This document shows positions 1,910 through 43,624 of a stretch of DNA of 64,000 bases, piece after piece (positions within the stretch are counted from its first letter, which is position 1; every line of letters begins with the position of its first letter). The notes beneath the pieces were generated by a model, which was not told the DNA's origin, ran no database searches, and was given only the letters and a program-made list of their open reading frames with translations. The DNA is from Asaia bogorensis (lineage in GTDB: Bacteria; Pseudomonadota; Alphaproteobacteria; CACIAM-22H2): NCBI GenBank assembly GCA_945892765.1, contig CAMDDQ010000002.1, positions 3,427 through 67,426 on the forward strand, given 5' to 3'. Made by a program: the position numbers and the translations under genes.

Positions 1910-1915
1910 CGCCGG

Positions 1916-3283: not shown

Positions 3284-3310
3284 CCCCGTGGATAACCTCC
3301 CCGTCACGCC

Positions 3311-3350
3311 AAAAAAGGAGCCCTCCGTATCAAATGATACGGAGGGCTCC
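3311..3350 (-). terminator. Rho-independent terminator on the minus strand: a 15-bp perfect stem with an AAAT loop, followed by T6.
   Basis: The plus strand reads aaaaaa GGAGCCCTCCGTATC aaat GATACGGAGGGCTCC. On the minus strand this is a hairpin followed by TTTTTT, immediately downstream of the stop of the 3379-4248 gene. Confidence 0.7.
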
Positions 3351-3378
3351 CTTGTCGGCAATCCAACCTATGACGGGG

Positions 3379-26950: not shown

Positions 26951-26953
26951 GGA

Positions 26954-27970: not shown

Positions 27971-28917
27971 GCCGCGCCCTCCGGTTGGGCCAAGAACGGA
28001 TAGGGGCGGTTCTCGAACCCGACCATGTCGCGACGGATATGGAAGGGGTTGGTGATTCCAAGATCGTTGGACCCCGCCATGGCGCTCGGCGCATGATCGA
28101 AGCCGCGTTCGCGCAGATGGCCGATGACATGGTCGTCGTAATCGTCGGCCTGGCCCTCGGGGTAGGAAAACAGGCTGCAACGCCGTCCTAGCTCGCGTTC
28201 TAGAGCGGCGACCGATTCGTTGATCTGGCGGCGCATCTCGACCTCCGGCACCTTCGCCAGCGACACATGGTCCACGGTGTGGGCACCAAAATCGACAAGC
28301 GGCGACCGGGTCATCGTCCGGACCTCGTCCCAATCGAGAAAGCGATAGAGCGGGTGATTGGGATCGGCCTGCGCTTGGAGCTGCGATTCCACCGCGGCCA
28401 CGATTGCGTCCTTGTCGGAATTGGGCAGACCTTTGCAGGCGCGTTTGACCGAGGCCAGAGCCTGGAGGCGGGACTCGCTTCCCGTCAGGGAAAAACGCGT
28501 CTCCACGCCGCTCAAGACAAGAGTCAGCCGGTCGCGTTTGGTCTGCACAATCGCCGCTTCCAACCGGTCGGTCCATATCGCGCGGCCAGTGCCGATGAAC
28601 CCGGTCGCGAGATAGAAGGTCGCGGGAACGCCGAATTTCTCAAGAACAGGCAAGGCCTCGGCGAGATTGTTGTAGAAGCCATCATCGAAGGTGACGGCGA
28701 CCGCACCCGCCGGCAGGTCGCGCTCGCCGCGATGGGCGGCGGCGATGTCGCTCAAGCGGACGACCGGACGGTTTGCCGCCAAATGCTGCATCTCGGCGGC
28801 GAAACGCGACCGCGGCACATGTTTTCCCGAACTATTGCGATGGTTGAGTTCGAGATCATCGGCGTGAACGCCGTGATAGAGCAGAACGAAATATCGGCCC
28901 GGCGGGTCGGCGATCAT
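27967..28917 (-). CDS. Polysaccharide deacetylase family (CE4).
   Basis: 'VAVTFDDGFYNN' NodB motif 1. 'HTVDH' His motif. Start ATG at 28917, with ATGA overlap. Confidence 0.7.
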   Translation of the reverse strand: MIADPPGRYFVLLYHGVHADDLELNHRNSSGKHVPRSRFAAEMQHLAANRPVVRLSDIAAAHRGERDLPAGAVAVTFDDGFYNNLAEALPVLEKFGVPATFYLATGFIGTGRAIWTDRLEAAIVQTKRDRLTLVLSGVETRFSLTGSESRLQALASVKRACKGLPNSDKDAIVAAVESQLQAQADPNHPLYRFLDWDEVRTMTRSPLVDFGAHTVDHVSLAKVPEVEMRRQINESVAALERELGRRCSLFSYPEGQADDYDDHVIGHLRERGFDHAPSAMAGSNDLGITNPFHIRRDMVGFENRPYPFLAQPEGAA

Positions 28918-29738
28918 GGCGACTCCGCATAGGCGCGCAGCAGGCGGCCGGCGCGTTGCCTTAGTAGCCAGGGCATCGGACCGAAGTAACGGCCTTCGCC
29001 CGTCTGCGGCTCCGCTTTGGCGGTGCCGGCGACAAAACATGCGAGCAGATCAATGGTCATGCGCGCGCACAAAATGGCGGTATGGCAGCGCAGATTGACG
29101 ACATTCATGCCCTTGATGCGGCCGATGGGCTCGGCGGCGTAAATCGCGCCGGTATCGATTCCGGCGTCGATGCCGTGCAGAGTGACATTCATATCCTGGG
29201 GTCGCCCTTCAAGCACCGCCCATAGATTGGTGTCGAGGCCGCGATAGGCCGGCAATTTTCCGCCATGGGCGTTGACCGTGCCGAGCCTTGGCGCATCGAA
29301 GATCCGCGCCTTGACCACGCCGGTGCCATAGACCAGTTGAAGGTCCGGCGACGCCTCGGCAAGCGCCGCCGCCGCGTCGTCATCGTTGATGGATCGTACC
29401 TTTTTGACCGAGAGAGATTGGGGCAGGCTGCTGTCGCCATCGGGGAAGAAAAGTGAATTTTCGAACTCGGCTTGGGCGCGGGCGAAGGATAGGGGCTGGA
29501 AATAGGGGTTGAGCGCAAGGCCGCGCCATAGATTTGGGAAAGTCTGCCGCAAGTGTCGCTTCGCGTTGCGGCCCCACGGATAGGGCCTGGTCTCGAACAG
29601 CGCGAGAACAAGTTCGACACGTTCCGGCTTCTCCCGCCACAAGCGGCGAAGATAATAACGGTGGTGCGGTGTGTCGGTCGTAAGCACGGCAACCCGAATG
29701 ACGCCATCCCGCTTCGTGGAGCCGGCATCTTCGTTCAT
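28914..29738 (-). CDS. Formyltransferase (Fmt / ArnA-N-terminal-like sugar N-formyltransferase).
   Basis: 'NAHGGKLPAYRGLDTNLWAVLEG' resembles the formyl_trans_N H..LP.YRG motif. Start ATG at 29738 overlaps the upstream stop. Confidence 0.6.
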   Translation of the reverse strand: MNEDAGSTKRDGVIRVAVLTTDTPHHRYYLRRLWREKPERVELVLALFETRPYPWGRNAKRHLRQTFPNLWRGLALNPYFQPLSFARAQAEFENSLFFPDGDSSLPQSLSVKKVRSINDDDAAAALAEASPDLQLVYGTGVVKARIFDAPRLGTVNAHGGKLPAYRGLDTNLWAVLEGRPQDMNVTLHGIDAGIDTGAIYAAEPIGRIKGMNVVNLRCHTAILCARMTIDLLACFVAGTAKAEPQTGEGRYFGPMPWLLRQRAGRLLRAYAESP

Positions 29739-31663
29739 GTTCTCGTGGCGATCAGCGGGGCCGCGCCAGCCGTTTGCTTCGCGAAGGCCTCGGCATACCA
29801 ACCGCCCCGGCGAAGCAGGGCCTCATGGGCGCCGATGGCGACGAGTCTGCCGCCATCAATGACGATGATCTGATCGGCGTCGGCAACGGTCGACAGGCGG
29901 TGGGCGATCACAACGATGGTCGTTGCCGTGTCCCGCCGGATGCGGCGCAGCGCCTCGCGAAACTTCACCTCGGCGTCCGCGTCGAGTTGACTGGTTGGCT
30001 CGTCGAGGATCAGGACGGCAGACTGTCGCGCGAGGGCGCGGGCGAGGTCGAGACGCTGGCGTTGGCCCCCGGAAAGTCGATGCCCATCTTCGCCAAGTGC
30101 GGTGTCGTAGCCCTTCGGCAACTTCTCGATGAACTCCGCCGCCCCCGCCAGATTGGCCGCCGCGCGCACCTCGTCATCCGTGGCCTTCGGGTTGCCATAT
30201 CGAATGTGCTCGGCGACGAGGACGTCGAAAATCTGGGGGCTCTGCGACACATAGGCAATGCCGGCGCGCAGGGAATCGAGCGCGAATTCGGTGAGCGCCG
30301 CACCATCGATAGAAATCGAACCGCCTGTCGGATCGCGGAGGCGTGGCAAGAGGTCGATCAAGGTCGATTTGCCGCTGCCCGAAGGCCCGACCAAGGCCGT
30401 CATTTGACCGGCGGGGATGTCGAAGGAAATGTCGTGCAGCGCCGGTACTTCCGTTCCCAGGCCGTAATCGAATGTCACGCCGTTGAAGCGGATCGCCCGC
30501 CGCAGCCCGCTGAAGCGGCGCTCCCCGCCCTTGTCTTCGCGGGCCGCGTCGAGGGCTGCCAGCCTTTGTTCCACGGCGCGGAGACTCGCCGAGAATCCGA
30601 GGACGACATGGTGCATCTTGACCATTTCGGTTACGGCCGGAAGCAGACGCAGCAGGATCAACAGAAATAAACCGATCGTTTCGAGCGGCATCGCGGCAAC
30701 GGTCGTGGCCACGTACAGCATGACGAAGCTGAAGGCCACGACGACCGGCTCCATCAGGGTGTTGATGCTCGCCCCCAGCGATTGGAAACGTACGGCCCTT
30801 TTGGCCTGTCGCAGCGTCAACATTTCCATGCGCGCAATCTCGCCGGCTTGGGTGCCGGATAGACGAATGAGGCGCACGGCCTTCAATCGCTCGGCGAGGA
30901 ACGTGGCCACACTGCGACTCGACTCGCTGATCCTCTGACTGGCTTCGCGGCTTTGCCCGATCAGGCCGCGGAGCATTCCGACCGAGCCGCCGAACACAAC
31001 CAATGACGCGAGCGTCATCCAGGGCGACAGCAGGGTCAGCAATCCGGCGTAGAAGGCCATCAGGATAGTGCCGCCCGCGACGCGAACGACGCACATTACT
31101 GCGCCGACGGCGCGCGGGGCCTCGACGACCAGGTCATTCACGACCGCGCCGAGCCGAGCGTCTTCCTGCGCGGTGACGCGTGCGGTCAAATAGCGGCGAA
31201 ACCCAAGATTGCGCAGCGATTGGATGGACGACTCATTGACCCGCGCCTCATAGATCATGCGGGCGTAGACGAAGGCCTGGCGAAGAAGAATTCCGGCGAA
31301 ACTCGCGGCCAGCAGGGTGACCAGGCTGACCTGGAGGCCGAGGGCCTCGTGCGCCGAGATGATCCAGCGCCAAAACGTTCCTTGGGCGAGCGGGCCAATA
31401 GCCTCGCCGGCTTGCATGAATTGAAATACAGGCAGCAGCATCGAAACGCCGAGGCCCTCGAAGGCGACGGCGCCAACCTGCAACACCAGCAATATCCCGA
31501 CACGGCGGCGCGTGAAGCCGACCCGCGGCGCGGCGCGTATGGCGTCCTTGTACGCCAAATCCGTCACTCCGACCGCGGCCTTGCTCCGTCGAGCAAGAGG
31601 CTCCTGATCGGATCGCCGCCGAATCGATGACCGTCGAAACGGCCGGAGAAGGAGGGACGACAT
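29735..31663 (-). CDS. ABC transporter, fused permease-ATPase type I exporter (MsbA-like).
   Basis: Six TM helices followed by 'GPSGSGKSTL' Walker A, 'LSGGQRQRLDLARAL' signature and 'ILDEPTSQLD' Walker B. The N-terminal 100 nt overlap the upstream ORF, so the start is uncertain. Confidence 0.8.
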   Translation of the reverse strand: MSSLLLRPFRRSSIRRRSDQEPLARRSKAAVGVTDLAYKDAIRAAPRVGFTRRRVGILLVLQVGAVAFEGLGVSMLLPVFQFMQAGEAIGPLAQGTFWRWIISAHEALGLQVSLVTLLAASFAGILLRQAFVYARMIYEARVNESSIQSLRNLGFRRYLTARVTAQEDARLGAVVNDLVVEAPRAVGAVMCVVRVAGGTILMAFYAGLLTLLSPWMTLASLVVFGGSVGMLRGLIGQSREASQRISESSRSVATFLAERLKAVRLIRLSGTQAGEIARMEMLTLRQAKRAVRFQSLGASINTLMEPVVVAFSFVMLYVATTVAAMPLETIGLFLLILLRLLPAVTEMVKMHHVVLGFSASLRAVEQRLAALDAAREDKGGERRFSGLRRAIRFNGVTFDYGLGTEVPALHDISFDIPAGQMTALVGPSGSGKSTLIDLLPRLRDPTGGSISIDGAALTEFALDSLRAGIAYVSQSPQIFDVLVAEHIRYGNPKATDDEVRAAANLAGAAEFIEKLPKGYDTALGEDGHRLSGGQRQRLDLARALARQSAVLILDEPTSQLDADAEVKFREALRRIRRDTATTIVVIAHRLSTVADADQIIVIDGGRLVAIGAHEALLRRGGWYAEAFAKQTAGAAPLIATRT

Positions 31664-32499
31664 TTATGCGCCGGGGCATATTGAATAATACAAACGACGC
31701 GAACGCCACCGCGGCATCGAGAGCCGAAATGCAGGCAGTTCGAGGTGTCGACGAATGCCCCTCGGCCGGCCGGACCGACCAGCGCAACGGCGTCTTCGGG
31801 GCGGCAATGTTGAAACACTTCTTCGTCGCTCAGGCGAGTATCGCCCGAATATGAGCGGCGCTCGTAGGATGTCGCGCCGCGAACGCGGGACGTAACATCC
31901 GCCGGCAGAAAGGTCAGGGGGCCGCTTTCGGGTCCGACGTCCAGCACATTGAGGAATGCCTGCAGGAATCCCACGCTCGGTTTATCGAGGTGGTAAAGCT
32001 CGCTCTGGATTGAGGCGGCGCGGCCTGGGGACACGCAGAGCATGATGTTTTGCAGGCGCGGCATCGTGCCGAAATAGCCGGCGGCGATCTCTACCATCGC
32101 GGGCGACAGGGCCGCGTCGAGAAAGGCGGGGCGATCGAGAATGTCGCGCGATGTCAGGATGTCATAGAAAGGCTGCGCCCCATCTTGAGGTACGGAACTC
32201 GCGCGTTCGGCGTAAAGCGCCTGCCCGGCGGAAACCAACGCCGCGACCTCCGGGACGATCGATGAATCGATAGGCGCAAATCCCTTCGCCCGGGGAATGT
32301 GGTTCCCCCGCGGCGACCCCGCCGACACCGATCGGGCGACCCTGCGGCGAGGCCAGCAATCCAACGGCCGGCGCGCAACGTCCAGGGCCTCCGCGGCGAC
32401 CCTGATCGCCGGAAAGGGCAAGCCCGCGCGCAGGCCGTAAATGAACATCATTTCTTGGACCGGTGTGCGGCGCGGTTTGATTTTGGCGGGGACGTCCAT
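31564..32499 (-). CDS. Putative Fe(II)/2-oxoglutarate-dependent oxygenase (PhyH-like).
   Basis: 'LYHLDKP' (HxD) and a later 'NCLHFGS' His, consistent with the PhyH facial triad. The match is weak. Confidence 0.35.
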   Translation of the reverse strand: MDVPAKIKPRRTPVQEMMFIYGLRAGLPFPAIRVAAEALDVARRPLDCWPRRRVARSVSAGSPRGNHIPRAKGFAPIDSSIVPEVAALVSAGQALYAERASSVPQDGAQPFYDILTSRDILDRPAFLDAALSPAMVEIAAGYFGTMPRLQNIMLCVSPGRAASIQSELYHLDKPSVGFLQAFLNVLDVGPESGPLTFLPADVTSRVRGATSYERRSYSGDTRLSDEEVFQHCRPEDAVALVGPAGRGAFVDTSNCLHFGSRCRGGVRVVCIIQYAPAHKCRPSFSGRFDGHRFGGDPIRSLLLDGARPRSE

Positions 32500-32505
32500 G
32501 GTTGC

Positions 32506-33348
32506 CTATCCCTGCGCCGCCGCCGCCCGTGGCTGAGAAATCGCCGCGCTCGGCCGCAAACGGAAACGGGCCATGCGGATGGGCACGGTTGGCTTGTAGC
32601 CCGCGGTCGCCCATTCGCGAACTTCCTCGCAATCCAGCCGCGTCCCTTTGATCGCATCCATAAAGAATCGCGAGTTGTGGTGCCAATTGACGTTGTCGTT
32701 TTGGTATTCGCAATCGGAGTCCGCATAGGTGAAGGTCAGCAGGAATACGCTTCGTTCGTGAATGAAATCGGCCATGTCGCGGATCAATTGTCGAACCGCC
32801 TCGGGCGGCATATGCACAACGACATCTTGGGCGTAGATGACATCAAACTTTTTCCCGGCCAGCGCGGCCAGCGAGCCGCCGCTCAAATGAACGAAATTCG
32901 GGTTCTTGTGCGAAAGGCCACATGTGGCAACCCACCCGCGCGCGCGTTCGAGGCATTCGCTTGAGATGTCGGCGCCGGTGTAACGGCCAGGCCCCAGATG
33001 CAGAATGAAATTGACCCCCGTGGCGCCCCCGCCGCAGCCATAGTCCAAGAACGTCGTCGCCGGCGTAATCCAACCGTGGGTTGCGAAATATTCCGGCGCG
33101 AACCGGCGGCGACGCTCCTCGGGTGTGCCGGTAACGGCCGCGCCCGATTTGCCCGTCCAGGCGCCGCGGGCGCGGCGGTCCATCATCCGCTCGTAGAAAT
33201 CGGTGTAGCTGCCGCCCCGAAGCCTTGTCGTCCACAACAGCCACTTATTCACGGTGCGCCGGAACGGCTTTTTGACTCTATTGAGGAAGGCCAGGACGAT
33301 CGGGAACAGCCCGAGTGCCACCAATATTCTCTTCAGAATCTTGCGCAT
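32506..33348 (-). CDS. Class I SAM-dependent methyltransferase with an N-terminal TM anchor.
   Basis: 'ILVALGLFPIVLAFL' hydrophobic N-terminus. 'FLDYGCGGGATG' SAM motif. Confidence 0.65.
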   Translation of the reverse strand: MRKILKRILVALGLFPIVLAFLNRVKKPFRRTVNKWLLWTTRLRGGSYTDFYERMMDRRARGAWTGKSGAAVTGTPEERRRRFAPEYFATHGWITPATTFLDYGCGGGATGVNFILHLGPGRYTGADISSECLERARGWVATCGLSHKNPNFVHLSGGSLAALAGKKFDVIYAQDVVVHMPPEAVRQLIRDMADFIHERSVFLLTFTYADSDCEYQNDNVNWHHNSRFFMDAIKGTRLDCEEVREWATAGYKPTVPIRMARFRLRPSAAISQPRAAAAQG

Positions 33349-33403
33349 GGTTCCATCCGGTGTTTATCGCTGGGACGCCTGCCAATGGCCAAGGGGCGGC
33401 AGA

Positions 33404-34420
33404 TCACTCGATTGCCTCGGGCGTGAGCGCCTCGAACGCCGCGATGCGCCGCCGAAGCCTGCGGCCGGAAAGATGAGGCGCATCAGCTGGGGACAGCGGT
33501 CCCTCCGGACGAATGATCTTGATGTCAGTTTCGGCGATCCTGTGGCCGGCATCGAGGTCGCGTGCAGCGTAAAGCCCGCGGCGCATGCGCCGGCGCATGG
33601 CGTCCTCGCCCGGCGCCGGAATCTTTTGTCCGTTGCCTAACATCCGTTCAATGCGGCGGATCGAGGTTACCAATCCCGCCATACCGACGGGATCAAGCGA
33701 CAGCGGGTGATCGCCGGGGCGCTGATTGCTGTCCAGCGTGAAGTGCTTCTCGATCACCCGTGCCCCCAACGCCACGGCCACGATGGGTGCCTCGGCGCCG
33801 ATCGTGTGGTCGGAGTAGCCCAGCGTGACATCGGGGAACCGGGCGCGCATGGTCTTAAGCGCGAGCAGATTGGCGTCCTCGTCGGGCAACGGATAAAGCG
33901 ACACGCAGTGCAGCAGCACAAGCCGTTCGGCCGGAACCAAAGCTGCGGCCCCGGCGACTTCGTCAAGCGTGGACATCCCCGTGGACAGCAGCACCGGCTT
34001 GCCGGTCGCGGCCCCGGCACGGATCAATTGGTGGAACGTGAGATCGCCTGAAGCGATCTTGATTGCCGGCATGCGTGGCGCCATTGCGTCAAGGATGTCG
34101 AGGGCGAATGGTGTCGTCAGGAAGTCGATTCCGAGGCCCGCGCAACGGTCGATAATTCGATCATAGGTCTCGGGGGGAAGCTCCAAAGATTTGAATCGTT
34201 CGAACTGGGATCTATAGGCGCTTCCGGCCATCGGCATCGGCGCGGCATTTGGGTGAATCAGAGACCCGGCGTCATAGGTCTGAAATTTGACGGCATCAGC
34301 GCCAGCGCCAGCCGCTTCCTCCACGAGTCGCAGCGCGACCGTCGAATCGCCATTGTGGTTGCCGCCGATCTCCGCGACGACATAGACGTGGCGGCCCAGG
34401 TCGGTGCGGCCGATGATCAT
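33404..34420 (-). CDS. NeuB-family nonulosonic acid synthase, paralog 3.
   Basis: 'VYVVAEIGGNHNGDSTVALRLVEEAAGAGADAVKFQ' with a C-terminal SAF domain. Start at the internal ATG (34420). Confidence 0.8.
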   Translation of the reverse strand: MIIGRTDLGRHVYVVAEIGGNHNGDSTVALRLVEEAAGAGADAVKFQTYDAGSLIHPNAAPMPMAGSAYRSQFERFKSLELPPETYDRIIDRCAGLGIDFLTTPFALDILDAMAPRMPAIKIASGDLTFHQLIRAGAATGKPVLLSTGMSTLDEVAGAAALVPAERLVLLHCVSLYPLPDEDANLLALKTMRARFPDVTLGYSDHTIGAEAPIVAVALGARVIEKHFTLDSNQRPGDHPLSLDPVGMAGLVTSIRRIERMLGNGQKIPAPGEDAMRRRMRRGLYAARDLDAGHRIAETDIKIIRPEGPLSPADAPHLSGRRLRRRIAAFEALTPEAIE

Positions 34421-34421
34421 C

Positions 34422-35834
34422 CTAGGTCGCGACCCCGTGAGGGGCGGAACCGGCGCCCTGCCATGAATCGGCGCCACGGGTCATGTGTTGCGCCGTCCAG
34501 TAGTCGAAGGGCGTGGCGATGCGCAGCGCATCATAGGGCGCCAACTCGATATGCCCGACGGCGCGGCCGAACAAATCGCTGCCCGAGATCAGATTTTCAG
34601 CCTTTAATGCGTACAGGCCGCCAGCCTCGCGGTAGATGACGTCGCGATCCTGGCGCACGACTCGTTTCTGGTAGCCGACCGGCGTGAGTCCGAATCGTCC
34701 GACTTTCCAGTGATAGGTGAGGTCTTCCACGACCGCGACGACCGAATCTGTATCGTAGAGCAGTAGGGTATCCAGCGCCTCTACGACATGGTCGCGGCGA
34801 ATGAAAGGCGATGTGGGATGGATGATCAGGACGAGATCCGGCTGATATCCATCGTCGGCCTGAAGGCGGTGCAACAGGTCGGTCAAGACCGCCTCGAACG
34901 CGATGGCCGGACTGTTCAGCGCCTTGCTACGCAGGAAGGGAGCCTCGGCGCCGGCCGCCCGCGCTGCATCCGCGACCTCGGCATCGTCGGTCGAGACAAC
35001 AATGCGCTCGATCATTTCGACGCCGCGGAGCTTATCGATGCAGCGGGCCAGCAGGTTGCCGTTCTCGAGGGATAGCAAGGGCAGCTTCGATCCATTGAAC
35101 CGGTCGGCCCTCGCCGGAAGGACGGCGAGGACCCGCCGCTGGAAGCGTTCGCGATGTTCTGCGACGAAGCGGTGTTTGACCGCCCGCCGCGTTTCCATCC
35201 GCCCTTCCCAGTTTCGAGACATGCTCTTGCCGTGCTCGCGGCGGAAGTAGAGCGGCAACGATACATTCCGAACTTGGAACTTTTCGATGAACTTGATCCA
35301 GAAGTCATAGTCTTCTTGGTAGCGAATGGACTCATTGTAGCCGCCGATCGCGTCGAAACAGGGGCGGCGATACATGGCGCCGGCGGCCGGCGCGGAGCGA
35401 TCGAGCAGCTCCACCTCTTCATTCACACGGTAGTGTCGTACGCGCTCGATGATGTCGCCATGCGAATCAACGGCGACGAGGTCGCAGAAGACAAGTCCAA
35501 TATCGGGGTGACGATCGAGATAGGTCGCCAGCACCAGAGCCAGGTTTTCGTCGTACCAGTCATCAGCGTCGAGTCGCACAATGTATTCGCCCGTCGATGC
35601 GGCGATCCCGCGATTGCAGGCGGCGGCCAGGCCGATCCCGGCGGTGCGGACGATCTTCAATCCGGGTCTTCCCTCATAACGAAGGAGAATTTGAGGCGTT
35701 TCATCGGTCGACCCATCGTCGACGACGACGACTTCGACCGCCGCATAATTCTGGCTGAGCGCGCTGTCCAGTGCGCGCGGCAAGTATTTCGCGTAGTTGT
35801 GCGCAGTGACGATGATGCTGACGGGAGTAGGCAC
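34422..35834 (-). CDS. Bifunctional fusion: an N-terminal GT2 glycosyltransferase and a C-terminal NeuA-like CMP-sugar cytidylyltransferase.
   Basis: N-terminal 'VSIIVTAHNYAKYL...VVVVDDGSTD...RLDADD' GT2. C-terminal 'LAVLPARADRFNGSKLPL' CTP_transf_3 signature. GTG start overlaps the upstream TAG by 1 nt. Confidence 0.7.
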   Translation of the reverse strand: MPTPVSIIVTAHNYAKYLPRALDSALSQNYAAVEVVVVDDGSTDETPQILLRYEGRPGLKIVRTAGIGLAAACNRGIAASTGEYIVRLDADDWYDENLALVLATYLDRHPDIGLVFCDLVAVDSHGDIIERVRHYRVNEEVELLDRSAPAAGAMYRRPCFDAIGGYNESIRYQEDYDFWIKFIEKFQVRNVSLPLYFRREHGKSMSRNWEGRMETRRAVKHRFVAEHRERFQRRVLAVLPARADRFNGSKLPLLSLENGNLLARCIDKLRGVEMIERIVVSTDDAEVADAARAAGAEAPFLRSKALNSPAIAFEAVLTDLLHRLQADDGYQPDLVLIIHPTSPFIRRDHVVEALDTLLLYDTDSVVAVVEDLTYHWKVGRFGLTPVGYQKRVVRQDRDVIYREAGGLYALKAENLISGSDLFGRAVGHIELAPYDALRIATPFDYWTAQHMTRGADSWQGAGSAPHGVAT

Positions 35835-36601
35835 TATTCTCTGTCTCCGCGTAGCCTGACGTTGATTGACGAGTCGATCTCCATCGCCGGTACTTGGCTG
35901 TTCAACGCGACGATTTCCGGATGGGCGTCAAGCCAGGCGATAATTTCCTTGAGCCGCGGGGGATTGCCTCCGAAGGCCTCATAGACCGCGCGGACGACGG
36001 CAAGGTCCTGCGGCGTGTCGATCGTCAACCGCAGTTCCGGCCGCCTTAGCGCGGGGTCGGCGACTGCGAATTTGCAAACATTGAATCGATCCGGCCGGCG
36101 AATCATCAAAGTCATGTACTCGCTGGCCTTGGGGTCTTCGGCGAGATCATGGCAGCGTTCGAGCGCCTTCAACGACATGACTTCGCATCGCGTGCCGCGC
36201 GGCGGATCCTCCGTGTAGGTATAATCGGCGCCGGCCTCTTTATGGGCCGCCAGCAACTGGTCCATGATTTCCGGATCGGTCAGCGGATTGTCACCCGTAA
36301 TCCGGACGATTGTGTGGGTGGCTCGACTCCAAGCCACCTCGATGAAGCGCGACATCACGTCGAGCTCGTCGCCACGGTAGACGCGCGCGCCGATCGTCCC
36401 AGCCAGTTCCTCAAGCGGATCGTCGTCCGGGTTCGTCGATGTACACCAGACGACATCCTCCGAAAGCCTCGCCTGCGAGACACGTTCGTGAAGTCGAAGA
36501 ATCAATGGTTTGCCCACGAGGTCGGCCAGGGCCTTCCTGGGAAGCCTTGAGGATTTTAGCCGTACGGCAACCAGGGCCAGCGTGCCGCTATGCGGGATCA
36601 T
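35834..36601 (-). CDS. CMP-sugar cytidylyltransferase (SpsF/PseF-like), second stand-alone copy.
   Basis: 'LALVAVRLKSSRLPRKAL' signature. Confidence 0.7.
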   Translation of the reverse strand: MIPHSGTLALVAVRLKSSRLPRKALADLVGKPLILRLHERVSQARLSEDVVWCTSTNPDDDPLEELAGTIGARVYRGDELDVMSRFIEVAWSRATHTIVRITGDNPLTDPEIMDQLLAAHKEAGADYTYTEDPPRGTRCEVMSLKALERCHDLAEDPKASEYMTLMIRRPDRFNVCKFAVADPALRRPELRLTIDTPQDLAVVRAVYEAFGGNPPRLKEIIAWLDAHPEIVALNSQVPAMEIDSSINVRLRGDRE

Positions 36602-37590
36602 GGGAGATCCTCCGCCAGGATCGGCTCGTCAGGCAGTTTGGCCGCCGCCAACAGCCGTCCCGCGAGCCGTTCAACGTCCGACTCGCTTAGCCCGGCCCGA
36701 TTGGTGCGCTTAAAGACCGCGTCTTTGGCGGTGAGGTGGTGGTCCCTGGGCAATGAACCCGCGGCGACAGCCTGCCGTTTCATCTCGTAGCGATACTTCG
36801 TCTCCGCGGGCGAGAGTGCGTCGCCGCCGTCGCCGAGGGATGTCCCGACGAGGCGCAGGAATCGCGTGAAGTCGGCGAACTCGGCGGGCTCGAGCGCCGA
36901 GAAATGGTCGCGACCCTTCCTCGACCGATCGTCCGTCACGTGTTTTTCAATGACCTCCGCTCCGGCCGCGAGCGCCATCGCCGGCAGGGTTCGGGCTTGT
37001 TCGCGGGCCGATGCGTCGGTGTGATCGGCAAATCCGACCGGCAACCCGAAACGCTGCTTCAAAGCCGGAAGTCGCGCGAGCTTCATGTCCTCTATCCGCG
37101 TGGGATAGCTCTGAAATCCGTGCATGAGCGTGACGCGCGCCTGGGTGAGGGGACTAATGACACCCAGCGCCGCGGCAATCTCTGCGTCCGTGGCGCCGCC
37201 GACGGCAAGGTGCAGGGGCTTGCCCGTGTGCGCCGCCGCCGCAAGGAAACGAAGGTTCGCGATATCCGAGGTAGGAAGCTTGTAGCCGCTGACGCTGCCG
37301 CTGCCTTCGGCCAGGTCCAAGCTAGGCTCATCGAAGGCCTCAACCCAAATTGCGACCGACGCACCGCGATATTCCGCAAGAATTTCTCGCCATGTTTCGG
37401 CGGCGATTTCGATCTGTCCAAAGGATTCGAATTTCGGATGGAAACGCGAAATCAGCGCGTCGCGGCGGAAGATCTGGAATTTTACCGCGTCAGCTCCGGT
37501 TCCCGCGGCCAGTTCAAACAATCGCCTTGCCAGCGCGGGGTCGCCTTCGTGAGCGGAGGCGATCTCGGCAACGATATAGGGAAGGTTCAC
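36598..37590 (-). CDS. NeuB-family synthase, paralog 4 (divergent).
   Basis: 'YIVAEIASAHEGDPALARRLFELAAGTGADAVKFQ' with a C-terminal SAF domain. 330 aa. Confidence 0.75.
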   Translation of the reverse strand: MNLPYIVAEIASAHEGDPALARRLFELAAGTGADAVKFQIFRRDALISRFHPKFESFGQIEIAAETWREILAEYRGASVAIWVEAFDEPSLDLAEGSGSVSGYKLPTSDIANLRFLAAAAHTGKPLHLAVGGATDAEIAAALGVISPLTQARVTLMHGFQSYPTRIEDMKLARLPALKQRFGLPVGFADHTDASAREQARTLPAMALAAGAEVIEKHVTDDRSRKGRDHFSALEPAEFADFTRFLRLVGTSLGDGGDALSPAETKYRYEMKRQAVAAGSLPRDHHLTAKDAVFKRTNRAGLSESDVERLAGRLLAAAKLPDEPILAEDLP

Positions 37591-37631
37591 GCCGATCCAA
37601 CTCTAGTTGAAGGGCCCAATTGCAACACTGG

Positions 37632-38771
37632 CTATATCGCGGTCGCGTCGTGGCGCCGCTGTTCTTCGGCCTTATCGGCGTGATGTTCGTGGTGATCGAC
37701 ATCGGCGCGAATGAAGCGGCCCGGCGCGGACTCCGATTCCTTCGCCAGCCGTTCGCGTTCGGCCAACTCGGTTGGGCTCATCTTCCGCCATTCATAGGAC
37801 GTCATGACGAAGCAGCCCTTGCAGGGGTCGAATTCGTCCAGACGACCGCTGCGATTCCAGTCGCGCAGCGTCTCCATGCGTTCGCCCTTCCAGATGTCTT
37901 TGAGCGGCACCTTCGTCGCGTCGCCGATGGTATAGGTGCGCTCCCAATCCGAACAGCAAGGGAAGACCTTGCCGTCGCGGGCGACGATCATGCGCTGCCA
38001 GGGCTGGTTGCACCGCTTGCGTCCGACGGCGATCTGGTCGCCGCTGTAAAAGGCGTTGCCTTGGCCGCGGTCGCTGACATCCTTGACCGCGATGTCGTCG
38101 GCGATCTCCTTCCACATTTCAAGAAAACGATCGACCTCGGCCTGATTCTCCTTCATGCGCACCATTTGAATGCGGATGAACGGCTTGACGCGGCCCTTGG
38201 CCTCTCGAACTTCGTGGAATTTGCGGATGTTGGCAGTCAGGCGGTCGTAATCCGAGCCGACCCGAACTTTCTCGTAGGTCTCCTTGGTCGCCCCATCCAT
38301 GGAAAAAATGATGCGGTCGAGACCGGCATCGATCAGCTTCTCGATGCGCTTTTGCGTGTAGGGGATGCCGTTGGTGTTGATCTGGACCTCGAGGATTCCC
38401 TTCTTCTTGGCGTAAGCCACGAGGTCCTCGAGCCCGGTGTGCAAGGCCGGCTCGCCGCGCCAATTGAACTTGATCGATTTCGTGCCGCCGGCGGCCGCCT
38501 GATCGATGGTGGATTTGGCGAAAGACATGTCCATGCGACCGGTGATCGGAACCCCGGTCGTGCCATGAACGCACATGATGCAGCGCAGATTGCAGGCCTC
38601 CGTCACCTCGATGTCGAGATGCAGGGGGAACGGCGTCACATGATCGTATTTCGCGACGAATCCCCATTTGGCCCGATAGATGAAGAAATTGAGATCGAAG
38701 CCGCGCTTGGCCCATTCGAGCGCCGCGTTGATCTTGCGGGCGAAGCCGTTGATTTCTTCATACTTGGCCAT
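37632..38771 (-). CDS. Radical SAM enzyme with a C-terminal SPASM/twitch-like Cys cluster.
   Basis: 'EVTEACNLRCIMCVHG' CxxxCxxC. C-terminal 'CNQPW...FPCCSDW...CKGCF'. Start at the internal ATG (38771). Confidence 0.75.
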   Translation of the reverse strand: MAKYEEINGFARKINAALEWAKRGFDLNFFIYRAKWGFVAKYDHVTPFPLHLDIEVTEACNLRCIMCVHGTTGVPITGRMDMSFAKSTIDQAAAGGTKSIKFNWRGEPALHTGLEDLVAYAKKKGILEVQINTNGIPYTQKRIEKLIDAGLDRIIFSMDGATKETYEKVRVGSDYDRLTANIRKFHEVREAKGRVKPFIRIQMVRMKENQAEVDRFLEMWKEIADDIAVKDVSDRGQGNAFYSGDQIAVGRKRCNQPWQRMIVARDGKVFPCCSDWERTYTIGDATKVPLKDIWKGERMETLRDWNRSGRLDEFDPCKGCFVMTSYEWRKMSPTELAERERLAKESESAPGRFIRADVDHHEHHADKAEEQRRHDATAI

Positions 38772-39774
38772 GATGCGTCCCACTGTAGCCGACTTCGCCC
38801 GCTTGCCTGAAATAGTCGAAGGTGCGGCGCACGCCTTCTTCGAGTGCAATTCGCGGCATGAAATCAAGCAATCGAGCCGCTTTGGATATGTCGGCGAAGC
38901 TGCGGCGGACCTCGCCGGCACGCTCCGGATGGTGCTTTAAACCGATTGTCCGACCGGTGCCGTGGCGAACAACTTCGGTGATCAAAGCGGCGAGCTCGTT
39001 GACCGTGCTTTCGGTTTGGGTGGCGATTTGGATGACTTCGCCGCCGATTCCGGGGCGAGTCGCCGCGCGAAAAATTGCCTCGATCAGATCGTCGACAAAG
39101 ACGAAATCGCGGCTTTGGTCGCCGTCGCCGTAAACCTCGAGAGGTTTGCCGGCCAAGGCACGCTTCAGAAAGGCGGCGACGACGCTGTCCTTGTGCGCCG
39201 ATCCGGGTCCGTAGACATTGCCGAAGCGCAGAGCCACGGTTTCAATGGCGAATGTGTGGAAATAGGCGCTGCAATAACCCTCGCCCGATAGTTTGCTCGC
39301 GCCATAGGGGGATTTCGGCCGGGGCGGCAGATTCTCGTGCAGCGGTGGGGCATGATCGCCCAGCGGTGCGGCCGACGATGCGAAGACAAATCGCCCGACG
39401 CGGTTTTTGCGCGCTGCCTCCAGATAGTTGAGCGTGCCGACCACGTTCACGGCGCAGTCGAAGGCCGGATCGGCGATGGACGACATCACACCGGCGTTGG
39501 CAGCAAGATGGACAATGACATCTGCGCCATCGGCCGCGCGCAAGGCCGCCGCCGCGTCGCGTATGTCGGCGATCATGACTTGGCAACCGGCCCATTCAGG
39601 CCCGGCACCATTGCCGCCCGAGTCGACCGCGTTGGTGCCATCGGGCAATGCCGAGCGCTTACCGGTCGATAGATTGTCGACGACCCGCATGGAAGCGCCC
39701 TCGCCATGCAGCCGCGCGACCAGGGCCGACCCAATGAAACCGCAGCCGCCAGTAATCAGCCAATTCATGCCCAT
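38758..39774 (-). CDS. NAD-dependent epimerase/dehydratase (UDP-hexose 4-epimerase-like extended SDR).
   Basis: 'WLITGGCGFIGSAL' and 'YGASKLSGE'. Confidence 0.8.
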   Translation of the reverse strand: MGMNWLITGGCGFIGSALVARLHGEGASMRVVDNLSTGKRSALPDGTNAVDSGGNGAGPEWAGCQVMIADIRDAAAALRAADGADVIVHLAANAGVMSSIADPAFDCAVNVVGTLNYLEAARKNRVGRFVFASSAAPLGDHAPPLHENLPPRPKSPYGASKLSGEGYCSAYFHTFAIETVALRFGNVYGPGSAHKDSVVAAFLKRALAGKPLEVYGDGDQSRDFVFVDDLIEAIFRAATRPGIGGEVIQIATQTESTVNELAALITEVVRHGTGRTIGLKHHPERAGEVRRSFADISKAARLLDFMPRIALEEGVRRTFDYFRQAGEVGYSGTHHGQV

Positions 39775-40913
39775 TTCACTCGCGGTAGGATGTAGTCCTT
39801 GCGTATGGCGTTGCCGTGACGGCGCACGAAATCGATCATGCCCACAATCAGTTCATCCGAGAGCGGATGGGGCTTCAATCCCAAATCCAGCAACCCGGTG
39901 TTCTTGGGATTGTAGTAGTGCTCTTCGGCCTCGCGCCTAGGGTTGTCGACCGGCCTTATCGCTACCTTGATCCCCGCGGCTTTGCCTGCTCGCTGAACGC
40001 GGTTCGCCAGTTCGTTCACCGAGAAGGTTTCGGTGAATTGGTTCAGTACACGGAATTCGCCGACCTTCGCCGGCTGGCGCAGAGCAAGTGCGACGCATTG
40101 GAGCGTGTCGCGAATGTCGAGATAGCCACGGGTCTGACCACCCTTGCCATACACAGTCAGCGGCTCGCCCGCTACCGCCTGCACGACAAATCGGTTCAAG
40201 ACGGTGCCGAAGATGTCGTCGTAGTTGAACAGCGGCGCGAGACGTTCGTCGGCGGCCAGTTCCTCCGTCTCGATCCCGTAGACCGGCCCTTGGTTCAAAT
40301 CGGTTACGGCAATATTCCAAACGCGCACGGCCAGATAGAGCAAGTCGCTGTCCTGGACCTTGGTCAGGTGATAGATCGATCCCGGCGTTTTCGGATAGAG
40401 GAAGCGATGTTCGCGTCCGTTGTGGGTGACGTCCAGATACCCTTCCTCAATATCTATATTCGGCGTCCCGTATTCGCCCATCGTGCCAAGCTTGACGATG
40501 TGGCAGCCGGGTGCTTTTTCGCGAACCGCCCATACAACGTTGAGCGTCGCCAGAAGATTGTTTTGAACGGTCGCGGCGGCGTGAGGCTGGCTCATCATCG
40601 AAAAAGGCGCCGAGGGTTGCTCGGCATAGTGAACGACGGAATCGGGACCGAATTCCCCGAACAGGCGCCGTAGGAATGCGTAGTCGGTGACGTCGCCGAC
40701 ATGCACGGCGATGCCGCGCCCACCGGCCGCGCGCCAGATCGCGGCGCGCTCGGGCATTTCCGGAACCCCAACCAATGGCTGGCAATCGAGATCGCGGCAA
40801 TTGCGCCGGCGCAAGTAGTTGTCCGCCACTGCCACGTCATGGCCCTGCGCGGCGAGGTTCATGGCCGTCGCCCAGCCGAGATAGCCGTCGCCGCCGAGCA
40901 CGAGCACTCTCAT
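39765..40913 (-). CDS. UDP-sulfoquinovose synthase homolog (SQD1/SqdB/Agl3 family).
   Basis: Near-identity to the SQD1 signature: 'VLVLGGDGYLGWATA', 'HYAEQPSAPFSM', 'VKLGTMGEYGTPNIDIEEGY', 'YHLTKVQDS', 'TDLNQGPVYGI'. Confidence 0.8.
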   Translation of the reverse strand: MRVLVLGGDGYLGWATAMNLAAQGHDVAVADNYLRRRNCRDLDCQPLVGVPEMPERAAIWRAAGGRGIAVHVGDVTDYAFLRRLFGEFGPDSVVHYAEQPSAPFSMMSQPHAAATVQNNLLATLNVVWAVREKAPGCHIVKLGTMGEYGTPNIDIEEGYLDVTHNGREHRFLYPKTPGSIYHLTKVQDSDLLYLAVRVWNIAVTDLNQGPVYGIETEELAADERLAPLFNYDDIFGTVLNRFVVQAVAGEPLTVYGKGGQTRGYLDIRDTLQCVALALRQPAKVGEFRVLNQFTETFSVNELANRVQRAGKAAGIKVAIRPVDNPRREAEEHYYNPKNTGLLDLGLKPHPLSDELIVGMIDFVRRHGNAIRKDYILPRVKWA

Positions 40914-41953
40914 GCGGCGGTCTCGGGTCTCAGAAGGCCGCTATCCCTTAAATAGGCGCGCAGCGAGTCGCGGTCCATGGGTGGGTGGTTGGCCGATGTA
41001 TAGGGCTGCTCCACCTGTTCGCGGAGAGTTTCGGGATAGCTGAAGTTCACATCGCGATAGAGATCGCGCAGGGCCGGGAGCACGGCAAAATGACGGCCAA
41101 GCTCGACTGACCGCCGGGTCTCCTCGCTGGTCATCAACTCCTCATAGAGCTTTTCTCCGGGGCGTGAGCCGATTTCCTTGATAAGGATCGCCTTCGGGTC
41201 AAGACCGAAAACCGGCGCCAATTCCTCGATCATCACACGCGCGAGGTCGGAGATGACGATCGTCGCCATCTTCGGGATGAAGACCTCGCCCCCGCGGGCC
41301 AGCGCCCCGGCCCCCAACACTAGATCGACGGCCTCGTCCAACGTCATGATGAACCGGGTCATCGCGCGATCGGTCAACGTGACGGCTCCGCCGCGCCGAA
41401 TTTGTTCGCGGAACAGCGGCACGACTGAACCGCGCGAACCCAGGACATTGCCGAAGCGGGTCGACGTGAATAGCGTTCCGTCGGGTGAAACGGCGGCAGC
41501 CGACATCAATCGCTCGCCCATCAGTTTCGATGCGCCCATCACATTGGTGGGGTTCACGGCCTTGTCGGAAGAGGTGTAGACGACCCTTGCCACCTTCGCC
41601 GCGCGGGCCGCGGCCACTACGTTTTGCACGCCCAGAATATTGGTTTGTACGGCTTCGAGCGGGCTGCGTTCGCACAGCGGCACATGTTTCAATGCCGCGG
41701 CGTGGAGGACGATGTCTACTCCCCGGCAGGCGTCGGCTACCTTGTCGCCGTCACGCACGTCGCCAAGGAGGGGAACAACCCGGTCCGCCCTGTGAGTCTC
41801 GGCCAGAAAGAACAGCTCGCTTTCATTGTTGTCGAGGGCGCGCAGTTCTCCCACGCCGAGGCCGAGCAGCCGAGTGACAAGCGCTCGCCCGACCGTGCCA
41901 GCCGCGCCGGTAACAAGCACGACGCGGCCTGAGAAAAGCATGCTAGGAGTCAC
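40910..41953 (-). CDS. PseB/CapD-like UDP-HexNAc 4,6-dehydratase, second copy (polysacc_synt_2).
   Basis: 'VVLVTGAAGTVGRALV' and 'MGASKLMGE'. Paralog of the 13449-14495 gene. Confidence 0.8.
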   Translation of the reverse strand: MTPSMLFSGRVVLVTGAAGTVGRALVTRLLGLGVGELRALDNNESELFFLAETHRADRVVPLLGDVRDGDKVADACRGVDIVLHAAALKHVPLCERSPLEAVQTNILGVQNVVAAARAAKVARVVYTSSDKAVNPTNVMGASKLMGERLMSAAAVSPDGTLFTSTRFGNVLGSRGSVVPLFREQIRRGGAVTLTDRAMTRFIMTLDEAVDLVLGAGALARGGEVFIPKMATIVISDLARVMIEELAPVFGLDPKAILIKEIGSRPGEKLYEELMTSEETRRSVELGRHFAVLPALRDLYRDVNFSYPETLREQVEQPYTSANHPPMDRDSLRAYLRDSGLLRPETAA

Positions 41954-42085: not shown

Positions 42086-43624
42086 TCAGGTGGCTTGTTG
42101 GAGAACGGCATTCACGTCGCTTTCGCCAAGGCTGTCGATTAGGCCCCCAAACGCGTTCTTTACGGCGGCGTCCAAGAGTGGCTCGGTCTGACCCTTGGTC
42201 TTGAGAGCAAAATTGTGCATATCGAAGGAACAGGCGATAGCCGCAGCCAGGAAACGGCTTCCATCCTTCCATGCCTTTTCGGCATCGACACCGTAGAGCG
42301 CGCGCTGAATGAACCCTTTGATTTGCGCCTCATCAATAACCGTCATGACGTGAGGGGCCATCGCATACATATTGTGTCGGCCGAACGTAATGACTGGCCG
42401 ACCGAGTGCCGCGGCTTCAAATCCCGCGGTCCCGGTAATGGTCACCGTAAATGCGGCCCGTCGCGCGCAATCAATGCCGCTTTCGCCCACATGGAGAAAG
42501 ACGACATTCTTCAAATCACCGATCTGATCGTAGAAATCGGTTGGCCGACGTCCGAGGGTGTAGAGATTTTCCTTGATCGCGAGAACGACACCCGCCGGTA
42601 GATCGCGGGCGATGGAGAGAATCGCGGCATGTTGGTTGAAGTATTCCGGAGACATGAGTTGCAAACTGGTTTCCGGCTCCTTGTGCAATGGGAAATATGC
42701 AAAGCGTCGGTCGGCAAGATCGGCAAGCCGGATGGTGCGTGAACCTGTCATGCGACGATAGGCGGCGTGTTCCCGAAGCGGGAAAGAAACGAACTCGCCG
42801 AAATCGAAACTCCGGGCTTTCTGATAGCCGCGTAGTTTCCAGTAGCCGTAGCTCAACGCGGCTACCGCGGCGCGGCGCAAACTTGTCGCGAGCGAGTGGC
42901 CGGTAAACCAGGTTTTCTTGGCGACAGCCATGCTGTAAGGCTGCTCTATTGTCGATTCCGGCCATGATGTCATGGCATGATAGGCGCGCTCGACCGCTGG
43001 GTTGAAGTAGTACTCGGTCGGCGTCCAATACCAGTAGTTTTTGTAGCGGCTCGTATCGAGTCGACGATAGAGAATGCCATGGGCGCGCGCCATCACGGCA
43101 GCGTCCTTGTCGCCTTGAAGCAGGATGGTCAGACCCTTGCCCTCGATTTCGCGGCGCCAGAAATCGAGCAACTCGCTATGCGCGTGCAGCATCTGGATAT
43201 AGCTGACGTCCCGATAGTGCTTCGATCGCGGGTAGTGAAAACTGCCGGGGCTGAAACCGCGTCCGAAATGCCGGTGGATGCAAGCAATCAGGCTGAATGT
43301 CGTGTCGCTCAGCTTCTCGAACGCCTGGGCGCGGGCGATGACCTCGGTTTCGTTCAGATCCGTGGCGCGCATGGCTTCCGGAATAACGTTGTTGTTGGAT
43401 ACGGAATCCCAGCGGCCGTGGGCGTTCATTTCTCGGAAGGCGCGGAGTTCCTCCGGACTGCGAACGTAAAGGTGGATCTTGGAGCCGTACCGCTCCTTGA
43501 GGCGGTCCGCCAGCTTGAGCGCGAGATCGCGCCAAACCGCGCGCACCTCAATCCCAACGCTGGCGAATCGACGTGACGCCGTCGCCTCATCGACATCTGG
43601 CGAGAATCCCGTGGCCGAACTCAT
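42086..43624 (-). CDS. Capsule-polysaccharide-biosynthesis (KpsS/KpsC-like, Capsule_synth) GT-B protein. Putative CMP-ulosonic-acid transferase.
   Basis: 'FAYFPLHKEPETS' and C-terminal 'TVTITGTAGFEAAALGRPVITFG' resemble KpsS/KpsC family motifs. The assignment is from memory of the family profile, not a computed search. Confidence 0.5.
   Translation of the reverse strand: MSSATGFSPDVDEATASRRFASVGIEVRAVWRDLALKLADRLKERYGSKIHLYVRSPEELRAFREMNAHGRWDSVSNNNVIPEAMRATDLNETEVIARAQAFEKLSDTTFSLIACIHRHFGRGFSPGSFHYPRSKHYRDVSYIQMLHAHSELLDFWRREIEGKGLTILLQGDKDAAVMARAHGILYRRLDTSRYKNYWYWTPTEYYFNPAVERAYHAMTSWPESTIEQPYSMAVAKKTWFTGHSLATSLRRAAVAALSYGYWKLRGYQKARSFDFGEFVSFPLREHAAYRRMTGSRTIRLADLADRRFAYFPLHKEPETSLQLMSPEYFNQHAAILSIARDLPAGVVLAIKENLYTLGRRPTDFYDQIGDLKNVVFLHVGESGIDCARRAAFTVTITGTAGFEAAALGRPVITFGRHNMYAMAPHVMTVIDEAQIKGFIQRALYGVDAEKAWKDGSRFLAAAIACSFDMHNFALKTKGQTEPLLDAAVKNAFGGLIDSLGESDVNAVLQQAT

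Follow-up and report, generated by a model that had tools for sequence, protein, structure and literature searches.

A family 2 glycosyltransferase fused to a NeuA-derived domain with a remodeled active site in a polysaccharide locus of Asaia bogorensis

The DNA analyzed here is a stretch of 64,000 nucleotides from Asaia bogorensis (assembly GCA_945892765.1, contig CAMDDQ010000002.1, positions 3,427 to 67,426), referred to as the window. It carries a gene whose product combines, in one polypeptide, a family 2 glycosyltransferase (GT2) domain and a domain of the cytidylyltransferase fold. Our preferred interpretation, to which we give slightly better than even chances, is that an active GT2 enzyme is joined to a non-catalytic, NeuA-derived module that would bind a cytidine nucleotide, plausibly a cytidine monophosphate (CMP)-activated ulosonic acid made by the products of neighboring genes. 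Judged by its residues, the C-terminal domain appears to descend from a NeuA-type CMP-nonulosonate synthetase, of which the machinery for the triphosphate of cytidine triphosphate (CTP) and for Mg2+ is lost and the residues for cytosine and the sugar acid are kept. The GT2 domain, all of whose catalytic motifs are kept, would then be the only domain of the fusion with catalysis of a known type.

The fusion is encoded by a single open reading frame (ORF) on the minus strand (window positions 34422-35834) with a GTG start codon and a product of 470 amino acids. In the protein, the GT2 domain occupies roughly the first 228 residues and is connected through a conserved linker helix to a NeuA-type CTP_transf_3 domain (residues ~233-455); Pfam and NCBIfam profiles, homologs, an AlphaFold2 model, and Foldseek provide the evidence for this division. 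Among the Pfam profiles, Glycos_transf_2 (PF00535) matches residues 6-131 (E 1.8e-31, 109.8 bits with a cutoff of 23.3), the longer GT2 model Glyco_tranf_2_2 (PF10111) matches residues 7-210, and CTP_transf_3 (PF02348) matches residues 252-368 (E 7.6e-10, 39.4 bits with a cutoff of 22.6), the last spanning just profile positions 17-125 of 217. A preliminary description, made from the letters of this DNA, had proposed a polypeptide of 470 amino acids with a GT2 and a CTP_transf_3 domain. This architecture is borne out by the ORF, the homologs, the structural model and the Foldseek matches, as well as by Pfam scores above the gathering cutoffs for both domains; the peptide that had been quoted for the cytidylyltransferase domain, LAVLPARADRFNGSKLPL, is found at residues 236-253. 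Built from 72 sequences, the AlphaFold2 model reaches 90.2 in the predicted local distance difference test (pLDDT) and 0.89 in the predicted template modeling (pTM) score, the latter suggesting a fixed arrangement of the two domains. The interdomain linker (residues 209-227, 35154-35210 on the minus strand) is modeled as a confident helix, and its residues R212, R216, K220, and F223 show little or no variation in the 72-sequence alignment. No transmembrane segment is found in the fusion (the maximal 19-residue Kyte-Doolittle hydropathy is 1.17), and the protein is probably a soluble, dimeric two-domain enzyme.

The GT2 half (residues 1-228, 35151-35834 on the minus strand) adopts the GT-A fold. 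Its PDB matches include 6p61, a GT2 protein from Leptospira (E 6.8e-30, 32% identity), and the chondroitin polymerase K4CP; Foldseek aligns the half to 6p61 with a target-normalized TM-score of 0.92 and also matches chondroitin polymerase. The motifs that define the family are all there: DxGS, as DDGS at residues 39-42; DXD, as DADD at residues 89-92 (nucleotides 35559-35570); and the acidic ED base, within QEDYD at residues 173-177. D40, D89, D91, D92, E174, D175, and D177 are invariant among 72 homologs. Altogether, the 72-sequence alignment has 34 invariant columns in the GT2 half versus three in the C-terminal half, and the invariant GT2 columns include those of the nucleotide-binding, DXD and catalytic-base motifs, of which the DXD and catalytic-base motifs align to their counterparts in 6p61 and K4CP. 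The GT-A fold and the DDGS, DXD and ED motifs are also the likeness to small soluble GT2 enzymes (6P61 from Leptospira, EpsE and SpsA from Bacillus subtilis) and to the GT2 domains of K4CP and PmHS2, none of which, unlike the fusion, has a cytidylyltransferase-fold domain. Full-length Foldseek alignments of the fusion to K4CP and PmHS2 contain two Rossmann-like domains in a like order, at a root-mean-square deviation (rmsd) of about 20 Å.

The C-terminal half (residues 233-455, 34470-35138 on the minus strand) is a NeuA-type cytidylyltransferase-fold domain whose active site, as judged from profile, Foldseek and residue comparisons, is remodeled. Its profile matches the NeuA structures 9ftb (6.8e-24), 9t4z (1e-23), 6ifd (2e-22), 1eyr (3.9e-20), and 1qwj (4.3e-18), and Foldseek aligns it to 9t4z, 9ftc, 6ifd, 1qwj, and 1eyr with target-normalized TM-scores of about 0.8; this fold match and the Pfam score place it in the CTP_transf_3 fold family. 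The best NCBIfam match of this half is the PseF model TIGR03584, which it matches over profile positions 20-218 with 73.1 bits, far short of the cutoff (205.7). As the match starts at position 20, the P-loop is left out of it.

The active site was compared, in the residue numbering of the Neisseria meningitidis enzyme, between 117 members of the fused family and 19 stand-alone NeuA proteins from the loci that carry the fusion; three alignments of the domain (single sequence, family profile and hmmalign) agree. Residues that recognize the base and the sugar acid are kept. The cytosine contact R71 (R302 in the window protein) is found in 97% of the fused family and in 19 of 19 stand-alone proteins. 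The sugar-acid binding residue R165 (R394) is kept in 89%, with Lys in a further 8% (stand-alone proteins: Arg in 9, Lys in 7), and Y179 (Y408), which likewise binds the sugar acid, in 96% (stand-alone proteins: Tyr in 13, Phe in 4). Residues that hold the CTP phosphates are lost or eroded: K21 and N22, each present in 19 of 19 stand-alone proteins, occur in 0% of the fused family (L251 and P252 in the window protein), and R12, also present in 19 of 19, is kept in 58% and replaced by Met in 30% (R242 in the window protein). The sugar/metal residue Q104 is retained in 13% (H339 in the window protein), compared with 16 of 19 stand-alone proteins. Of the two Mg2+ ligands, D209 is never Asp in the fused family and its position is basic in 116 of the 117 members (94 Arg, 13 His, 9 Lys; one Gln), with R438 in the window protein; D211 is kept in 12%, with A440 in the window protein. 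The stand-alone proteins have these ligands in 16 and 15 of 19 cases, respectively.

Two segments summarize the change. A degenerate P-loop, PARADRFNGSKLPLL (residues 240-254, 35073-35117 on the minus strand), stands in place of the canonical PARGGSKG-P-KN loop; its K21 equivalent is Leu and its N22 equivalent Pro or Ala, and its length is variable across the family, with insertions of up to 11 amino acids in haloarchaeal loci. The Mg2+-binding (S)IDIDT is replaced by ALRIAT (residues 436-441, 34512-34529 on the minus strand), in which, by alignment to 1eyr, 6ifd, and 1qwj, R438 takes the position of D209 and A440 that of D211. When representatives of clusters at 50% identity are considered, K21 or N22 is found in 0 of 27 GT2-fused domains, and unfused NeuA proteins have the canonical R-K-N-Q-D-D signature. 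The few matches that have the fusion-type residue signature and no GT2 domain are short sequences, perhaps fragments. With a D209A substitution, activity of the N. meningitidis enzyme is no longer measurable, and with D211A its kcat falls 15,000-fold (PMC2901514); the same paper cites earlier work in which K21 and R12 were identified as important for catalysis. Compared with a functional NeuA, PseF or LegF enzyme, the window protein has the residues for binding cytosine and sugar acid (R302, R394, Y408) and lacks the phosphate binders K21/N22, the Mg2+ ligands D209/D211 and a PseF equivalog score.

Sequence conservation indicates that the NeuA-derived domain is under purifying selection and is rewired instead of decaying, because its identity is comparable to that of neighboring proteins and because the fused family has conserved polar residues of its own. 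In the 14 loci in which all components are present, the mean pairwise identity is 44% for the NeuA-derived domain, compared with 45% for the adjacent synthase NeuB(b), 41% for an SpsF-like cytidylyltransferase, 39% for stand-alone NeuA, and 58% for the GT2 domain, which is far more conserved across phyla than typical glycan-assembly glycosyltransferases. The family-specific polar residues are E352, D371, R391, E403 (100%), E430, and R438, at positions that are hydrophobic or variable in stand-alone NeuA; H428 is conserved in 81% of the fused family.

That the fusion arises from a frameshift or an assembly error, the possibility named in the preliminary description as the one that would undo it, is refuted by several lines of evidence. 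Logan contig L001 (run SRR8561391, 7.9 kb) aligns to window positions 33272-41189 with 98.5% identity, 115 mismatches and 0 gaps, and it holds the intact fusion ORF, with two amino-acid differences from the window protein. A protein search returns at least 115 full-length homologs of the fusion (452-496 amino acids, 42-66% identity), whose source names include Alphaproteobacteria, Omnitrophota, Nitrospirota, Elusimicrobiota, Planctomycetota, and Hadesarchaea. Scanning 185,579 species-representative genomes by motif yields 30 related loci, counts that are a lower bound; the fusion is present in 28 of them, complete in 27 and truncated by the end of its contig in one. These loci include some from complete genomes of cultured haloarchaea, namely Haloarcula regularis and Halosimplex sp. 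TS25. The intact ORF in a second assembly, the full-length homologs, the genome loci and the confident structural model all argue against an artefact. The earlier remark that such a fusion is uncommon holds when counted per genome; the architecture nevertheless constitutes a large family that is phylogenetically wide.

The fusion and its neighbors form a tightly packed operon on the minus strand. Directly upstream of the fusion on the coding strand, and translationally coupled to it, is a gene for a stand-alone cytidylyltransferase of the KdsB/SpsF type (35834-36601, 255 amino acids; CTP_transf_3 E 2.4e-24, 86.8 bits; best PDB match 6oew, 1.7e-16). The preliminary description had recognized this enzyme and had placed it after the fusion, which is not its position in the direction of transcription. 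At the junction, TAGTG, the TAG stop of the 255-amino-acid gene and the GTG start of the fusion share one base. The enzyme has the motifs of its type, RLKSSRLPRK, TGDNPL and IDTPQD aligning to the KdsB P-loop, QGDEP and VDTPED, respectively; its KdsB equivalog scores are below the cutoffs. On the downstream side, a single base (TAG-G-ATG) separates the stop codon of the fusion from the ATG of NeuB(b), a NeuB-family synthase of 338 amino acids (33404-34420, with the ATG at 34420; Pfam NeuB E 4.8e-74), and downstream of NeuB(b) is a gene for a methyltransferase dependent on S-adenosylmethionine (SAM) (32506-33348). Further upstream, the operon encodes NeuB(a), a divergent NeuB-family synthase of 330 amino acids (36598-37590; Pfam NeuB E 6.5e-47), a radical-SAM/SPASM protein (37632-38771; Pfam Radical_SAM and SPASM), and three nucleotide-sugar enzymes of the short-chain dehydrogenase/reductase (SDR) type (38758-41941). 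The middle SDR protein (39765-40913, 382 amino acids) resembles uridine diphosphate (UDP)-sulfoquinovose synthase, with E 3.8e-132 and a score below the equivalog cutoff.

The same cassette, made up of three SDR enzymes, the radical-SAM/SPASM protein, NeuB(a), the SpsF-like enzyme, the fusion, sometimes a NeuA, NeuB(b), and often a methyltransferase, is common to Alphaproteobacteria, Nitrospirota, Omnitrophota, Desulfobacterota, Elusimicrobiota, haloarchaea, Hadarchaeia, and DPANN archaea; Magnetospirillum is one of its carriers. Neighborhood counts refer to 29 non-redundant loci. A NeuB(b)-type gene is found in 26 of them, the radical-SAM/SPASM protein in 20 (21 of 30 by clustering, when the window is included), and a stand-alone NeuA-type gene (~240 amino acids) in 19, in many of which it immediately follows the fusion. 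In 28 of the 29 loci the fusion has one or more canonical cytidylyltransferases (SpsF-like or NeuA) beside it, the exception being a contig of 7.4 kb. The SDR trio stands beside the fusion also in L002, L037, L008, and L009 (Nitrospirota and other loci), and in L003 and L004 a methyltransferase is encoded downstream of the fusion and after NeuB(b), respectively. By all-against-all clustering, only the NeuB, SpsF-like, radical-SAM/SPASM and SDR families recur with the fusion. No further conserved partner, such as an acceptor protein or a ulosonate transferase, is found by this clustering or by comparison of the window's unannotated ORFs with the 29 loci, and the assembly glycosyltransferases around the cassette differ between loci.

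CMP activation is most likely carried out by the neighboring stand-alone enzymes and not by the fused domain, because the catalytic residues of the latter appear to be lost, because the D209A and D211A data bear on just these positions, because the stand-alone NeuA proteins serve as a control, and because a canonical enzyme is at hand in nearly all loci. The same loss of the CTP-phosphate and Mg2+ residues and the same adjacency speak against the proposal, made in the preliminary description, that the fusion physically couples CMP activation to transfer and channels the substrate.

We infer that the fusion acts at the level of nucleotide sugars, since it travels with genes for precursor synthesis in loci whose final glycans differ and since its GT2 half is unusually conserved. 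A more specific scheme, drawn by analogy and put forward tentatively, is that the GT2 domain acts on a nucleoside diphosphate (NDP)-sugar during precursor synthesis and that the NeuA-derived domain senses CMP-ulosonate; we hold it to be possible, at clearly less than even chances. The SDR trio would make the NDP-sugar, and the GT2 domain would act on this product. It may constitute the missing NDP-sugar-cleaving step that feeds NeuB in a cassette without NeuC or PseG: no NeuC/PseG-type enzyme is found in the core cassette, canonical Pse or Neu blocks in the fusion loci carry their own PseG or NeuC, and an Epimerase_2 protein lies near the fusion in one locus, L006, where it is paired with a UDP-sugar dehydrogenase. 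NeuB and the stand-alone cytidylyltransferases would subsequently make the CMP-ulosonic acid, an end product that the NeuA-derived domain might sense and report. A parallel for such a sensor is the sialic-acid enzyme GNE, which is subject to feedback inhibition by CMP-N-acetylneuraminic acid (CMP-Neu5Ac). In a close variant, the NeuA-derived domain would present CMP-ulosonate as the acceptor and the GT2 domain would glycosylate it.

Several points weigh against an active GT2 enzyme with a non-catalytic binding module. The version with a hydrolase and a sensor derives solely from an apparently missing step and an analogy, and we know of no GT-A enzyme dedicated to the hydrolysis of NDP-sugars. 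In the literature we found no paper on a GT2-cytidylyltransferase fusion or on a pseudo-NeuA. The window protein itself keeps R242 at the R12 position and has a lysine, K250, one residue before the K21 position, and the catalytic residues of the domain could have migrated, E403 and E430 being new, near-invariant carboxylates with which a metal site might in principle be rebuilt. Four NeuB paralogs in the locus face only two canonical cytidylyltransferases, and no stand-alone NeuA-type enzyme is found in the 64-kb window, so that here it would be convenient if the fused domain acted as a cytidylyltransferase. The carboxylates and the missing stand-alone NeuA speak at the same time for a bifunctional protein, whose C-terminal domain would make CMP-ulosonate from the product of NeuB(b) and whose GT2 domain would transfer it or act next, with channeling. 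Such a protein would also account for the strong fold and profile similarity to NeuA enzymes and for the retained cytosine- and sugar-binding residues, and the gene order, NeuB(a)-SpsF followed by fusion-NeuB(b), resembles two synthase/activator pairs. We nonetheless regard bifunctionality as unlikely. K21 and N22 are present in no member of the family, 99% of the members have a basic residue at the D209 position and 30% have Met for R12, and the substitutions D209A and D211A cripple a real NeuA (PMC2901514). The length of the P-loop is unconstrained across the family, an extra canonical NeuA accompanies the fusion in 19 of the 29 loci, often directly after it, and the strictly conserved DXD of the GT2 domain speaks for an NDP-sugar, not a CMP-sugar, as the donor.

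The loss of NeuA catalytic residues is also compatible with a domain that binds no ligand and provides only structural or dimerization support for the GT2 domain. The dimerization arm of NeuA corresponds to residues 372-398 and is conserved in the fusion (W376, G382, L383), and a precedent is known from the vertebrate CMP-sialic acid synthetase, whose inactive C-terminal domain serves oligomerization. A scaffold, however, has no need of the pocket residues that are retained (R302 in 97%, the S-P-F motif, R394, Y408 in 96%), nor of the new conserved polar residues E403, E430, and R438 that stand in place of hydrophobic ones around the old active site, and we consider a purely structural role quite improbable. 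The least probable of the readings, in our estimate, takes up the same polar residues and turns the NeuA-derived domain into a transferase with CMP-ulosonate as its donor, so that hexose and ulosonic acid would be added alternately by a two-headed glycosyltransferase or polymerase. In place of Mg2+, a basic residue would act at the phosphate, and a new acid/base His or Glu would catalyze the transfer, for which the near-invariant basic residue at the D209 position and the conserved H428, E430, and E403 nearby are candidates. The relatedness of the cytidylyltransferase and GT-A folds, the retained pocket for the product CMP-ulosonate, and the domain order shared with K4CP and PmHS2 in full-length Foldseek alignments, albeit at the high rmsd given above, are in line with it. 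It remains pure inference, as there is no precedent for a glycosyltransferase derived from a cytidylyltransferase; moreover, some loci have separate candidate ulosonate transferases (GT30-like in L004, Capsule_synth-like in L029), and the fusion is conserved together with precursor genes, not with assembly genes.

The fusion can be compared with several known systems. The NeuA-type synthetases considered here are those of N. meningitidis (1EYR), Vibrio cholerae (6IFD) and mouse (1QWJ), the CMP-Pse5Ac7Ac synthetase of A. caviae (9FTB/9FTC), and the CMP-Kdn synthetase PpNeuA (9T4Z). With these, the NeuA-derived domain shares the fold, the VSTDD and GAEVPFLRP motifs, the equivalents of R71, R165 and Y179, and the dimerization arm; it differs in lacking the GGSK...KN P-loop, Q104 and the Mg2+ ligands D209/D211, and in being fused to a GT2 domain. 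Natural fusions within nonulosonate pathways are PseF-PseG of Helicobacter pylori (HP0326) and NeuA with a C-terminal esterase domain, and a PseG-PseH fusion is seen in L037. The likeness lies in a NeuB cluster that encodes a cytidylyltransferase-fold domain and a glycosyltransferase-like pathway enzyme as one protein; those fusions have a canonical cytidylyltransferase and a GT-B partner (PseG), whereas here the partner is of the GT-A fold (GT2) and the cytidylyltransferase-like domain is non-canonical. The idea of activation plus transfer is embodied in a CMP-Neu5Ac synthetase/sialyltransferase fusion reportedly engineered by Gilbert et al. in 1998, and that of hexose plus sialic acid in the two-domain capsule polymerases of N. 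meningitidis W and Y. These proteins rely on a cytidylyltransferase that is active or on a genuine sialyltransferase domain (GT42/52 or GT97), catalytic features that the window fusion does not have.

Databases name homologs of the fusion "glycosyltransferase" or "CMP-N-acetylneuraminic acid synthetase", and the latter label probably mis-assigns an activity. If the NeuA-derived domain is a ligand-binding relic, an enzyme fold would have been reused as a sensor or substrate-presenting module in a sugar pathway; if it were a re-tooled transferase, it would be the first glycosyltransferase derived from a cytidylyltransferase. The fusion also marks a conserved, uncharacterized cassette that probably makes an unknown ulosonic-acid sugar, and the cultured Haloarcula and Halosimplex strains that harbor it may open an experimental route.

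Other arrangements of the cassette proteins are seen as well. NeuB(a) and the SpsF-like enzyme are themselves fused (~590-600 amino acids) in L004/L017 (6223-8001) and L010 (4100-5914), which correspond to one Omnitrophota and one Desulfomonile genome, in both cases directly upstream of the gene for the GT2 fusion. The family TIGR04321, "spiro-SPASM", combines a cytidylyltransferase-like N-terminus with a radical-SAM/SPASM part, and its halves match the SpsF-like enzyme (35834-36601) and the radical-SAM/SPASM protein (37632-38771), respectively. TIGR04321 proteins are single polypeptides, whereas the window has two genes whose scores, 44.8 and 87.6 bits, are far below the cutoff of 250 and place them outside the family; the two genes, which both accompany the GT2 fusion in most loci, look like a split form of the spirochaete fusion. 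The candidate ulosonate transferases mentioned above are a GT30 Kdo-transferase-like protein in L004 (11100-12407, Omnitrophota) and a protein with a weak Capsule_synth/KpsS-like match in L029 (13728-15359, Haloarcula regularis).

The fusion is part of a minus-strand surface-polysaccharide locus of ~45 kb, with housekeeping genes to its right. The locus extends from a NusG paralog (45756-46259) as far as 881-3361, where a Wzy_C protein and a WecA/MraY-type transferase are encoded. It is headed by the NusG paralog together with a winged-helix regulator (46261-46890), which suggests, by analogy with RfaH/UpxY-type factors, a dedicated anti-termination control. The four NeuB paralogs, all on the minus strand, are located at 11540-12610, 26954-27970, 33404-34420, and 36598-37590 and share 28-43% mutual identity; no DegT, NeuC or PseG is found among the window ORFs scanned. 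The third cytidylyltransferase of the preliminary description is indeed present at 10135-10890 (minus strand, 251 amino acids, KdsB/SpsF-type; CTP_transf_3 E 1.2e-23) and is 32% identical to that at 35834-36601. Next to it and to the NeuB at 11540-12610, a stand-alone GT2 protein of 226 amino acids is recognized by Pfam (10887-11567, minus strand). This pair was considered as a split version of the fusion and rejected: the GT2 protein has no BLASTP match to the fusion GT2 and scores 15.6 bits against the hidden Markov model of the latter, hence belongs to a different subfamily, and the cytidylyltransferase is of the KdsB/SpsF type, not the NeuA type.

Elsewhere in the locus, a block at 23752-31558 consists of genes for HisF-like, HisH-like and asparagine-synthase-like amidotransferase proteins, the third NeuB, a polysaccharide deacetylase, a formyltransferase, and an ABC (ATP-binding cassette) transporter, and looks like a module for modifying the N-acyl groups of a nonulosonic acid. 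Five ORFs have no Pfam match (42086-43624, 43621-44826, 19042-20688, 22619-23728, and 31564-32499), and only the 401-amino-acid one among them has clear homologs, in two related alphaproteobacterial loci (L007 and L027). A carbamoyltransferase of 638 amino acids, encoded at 14485-16401, hints at O-carbamoylated sugars.

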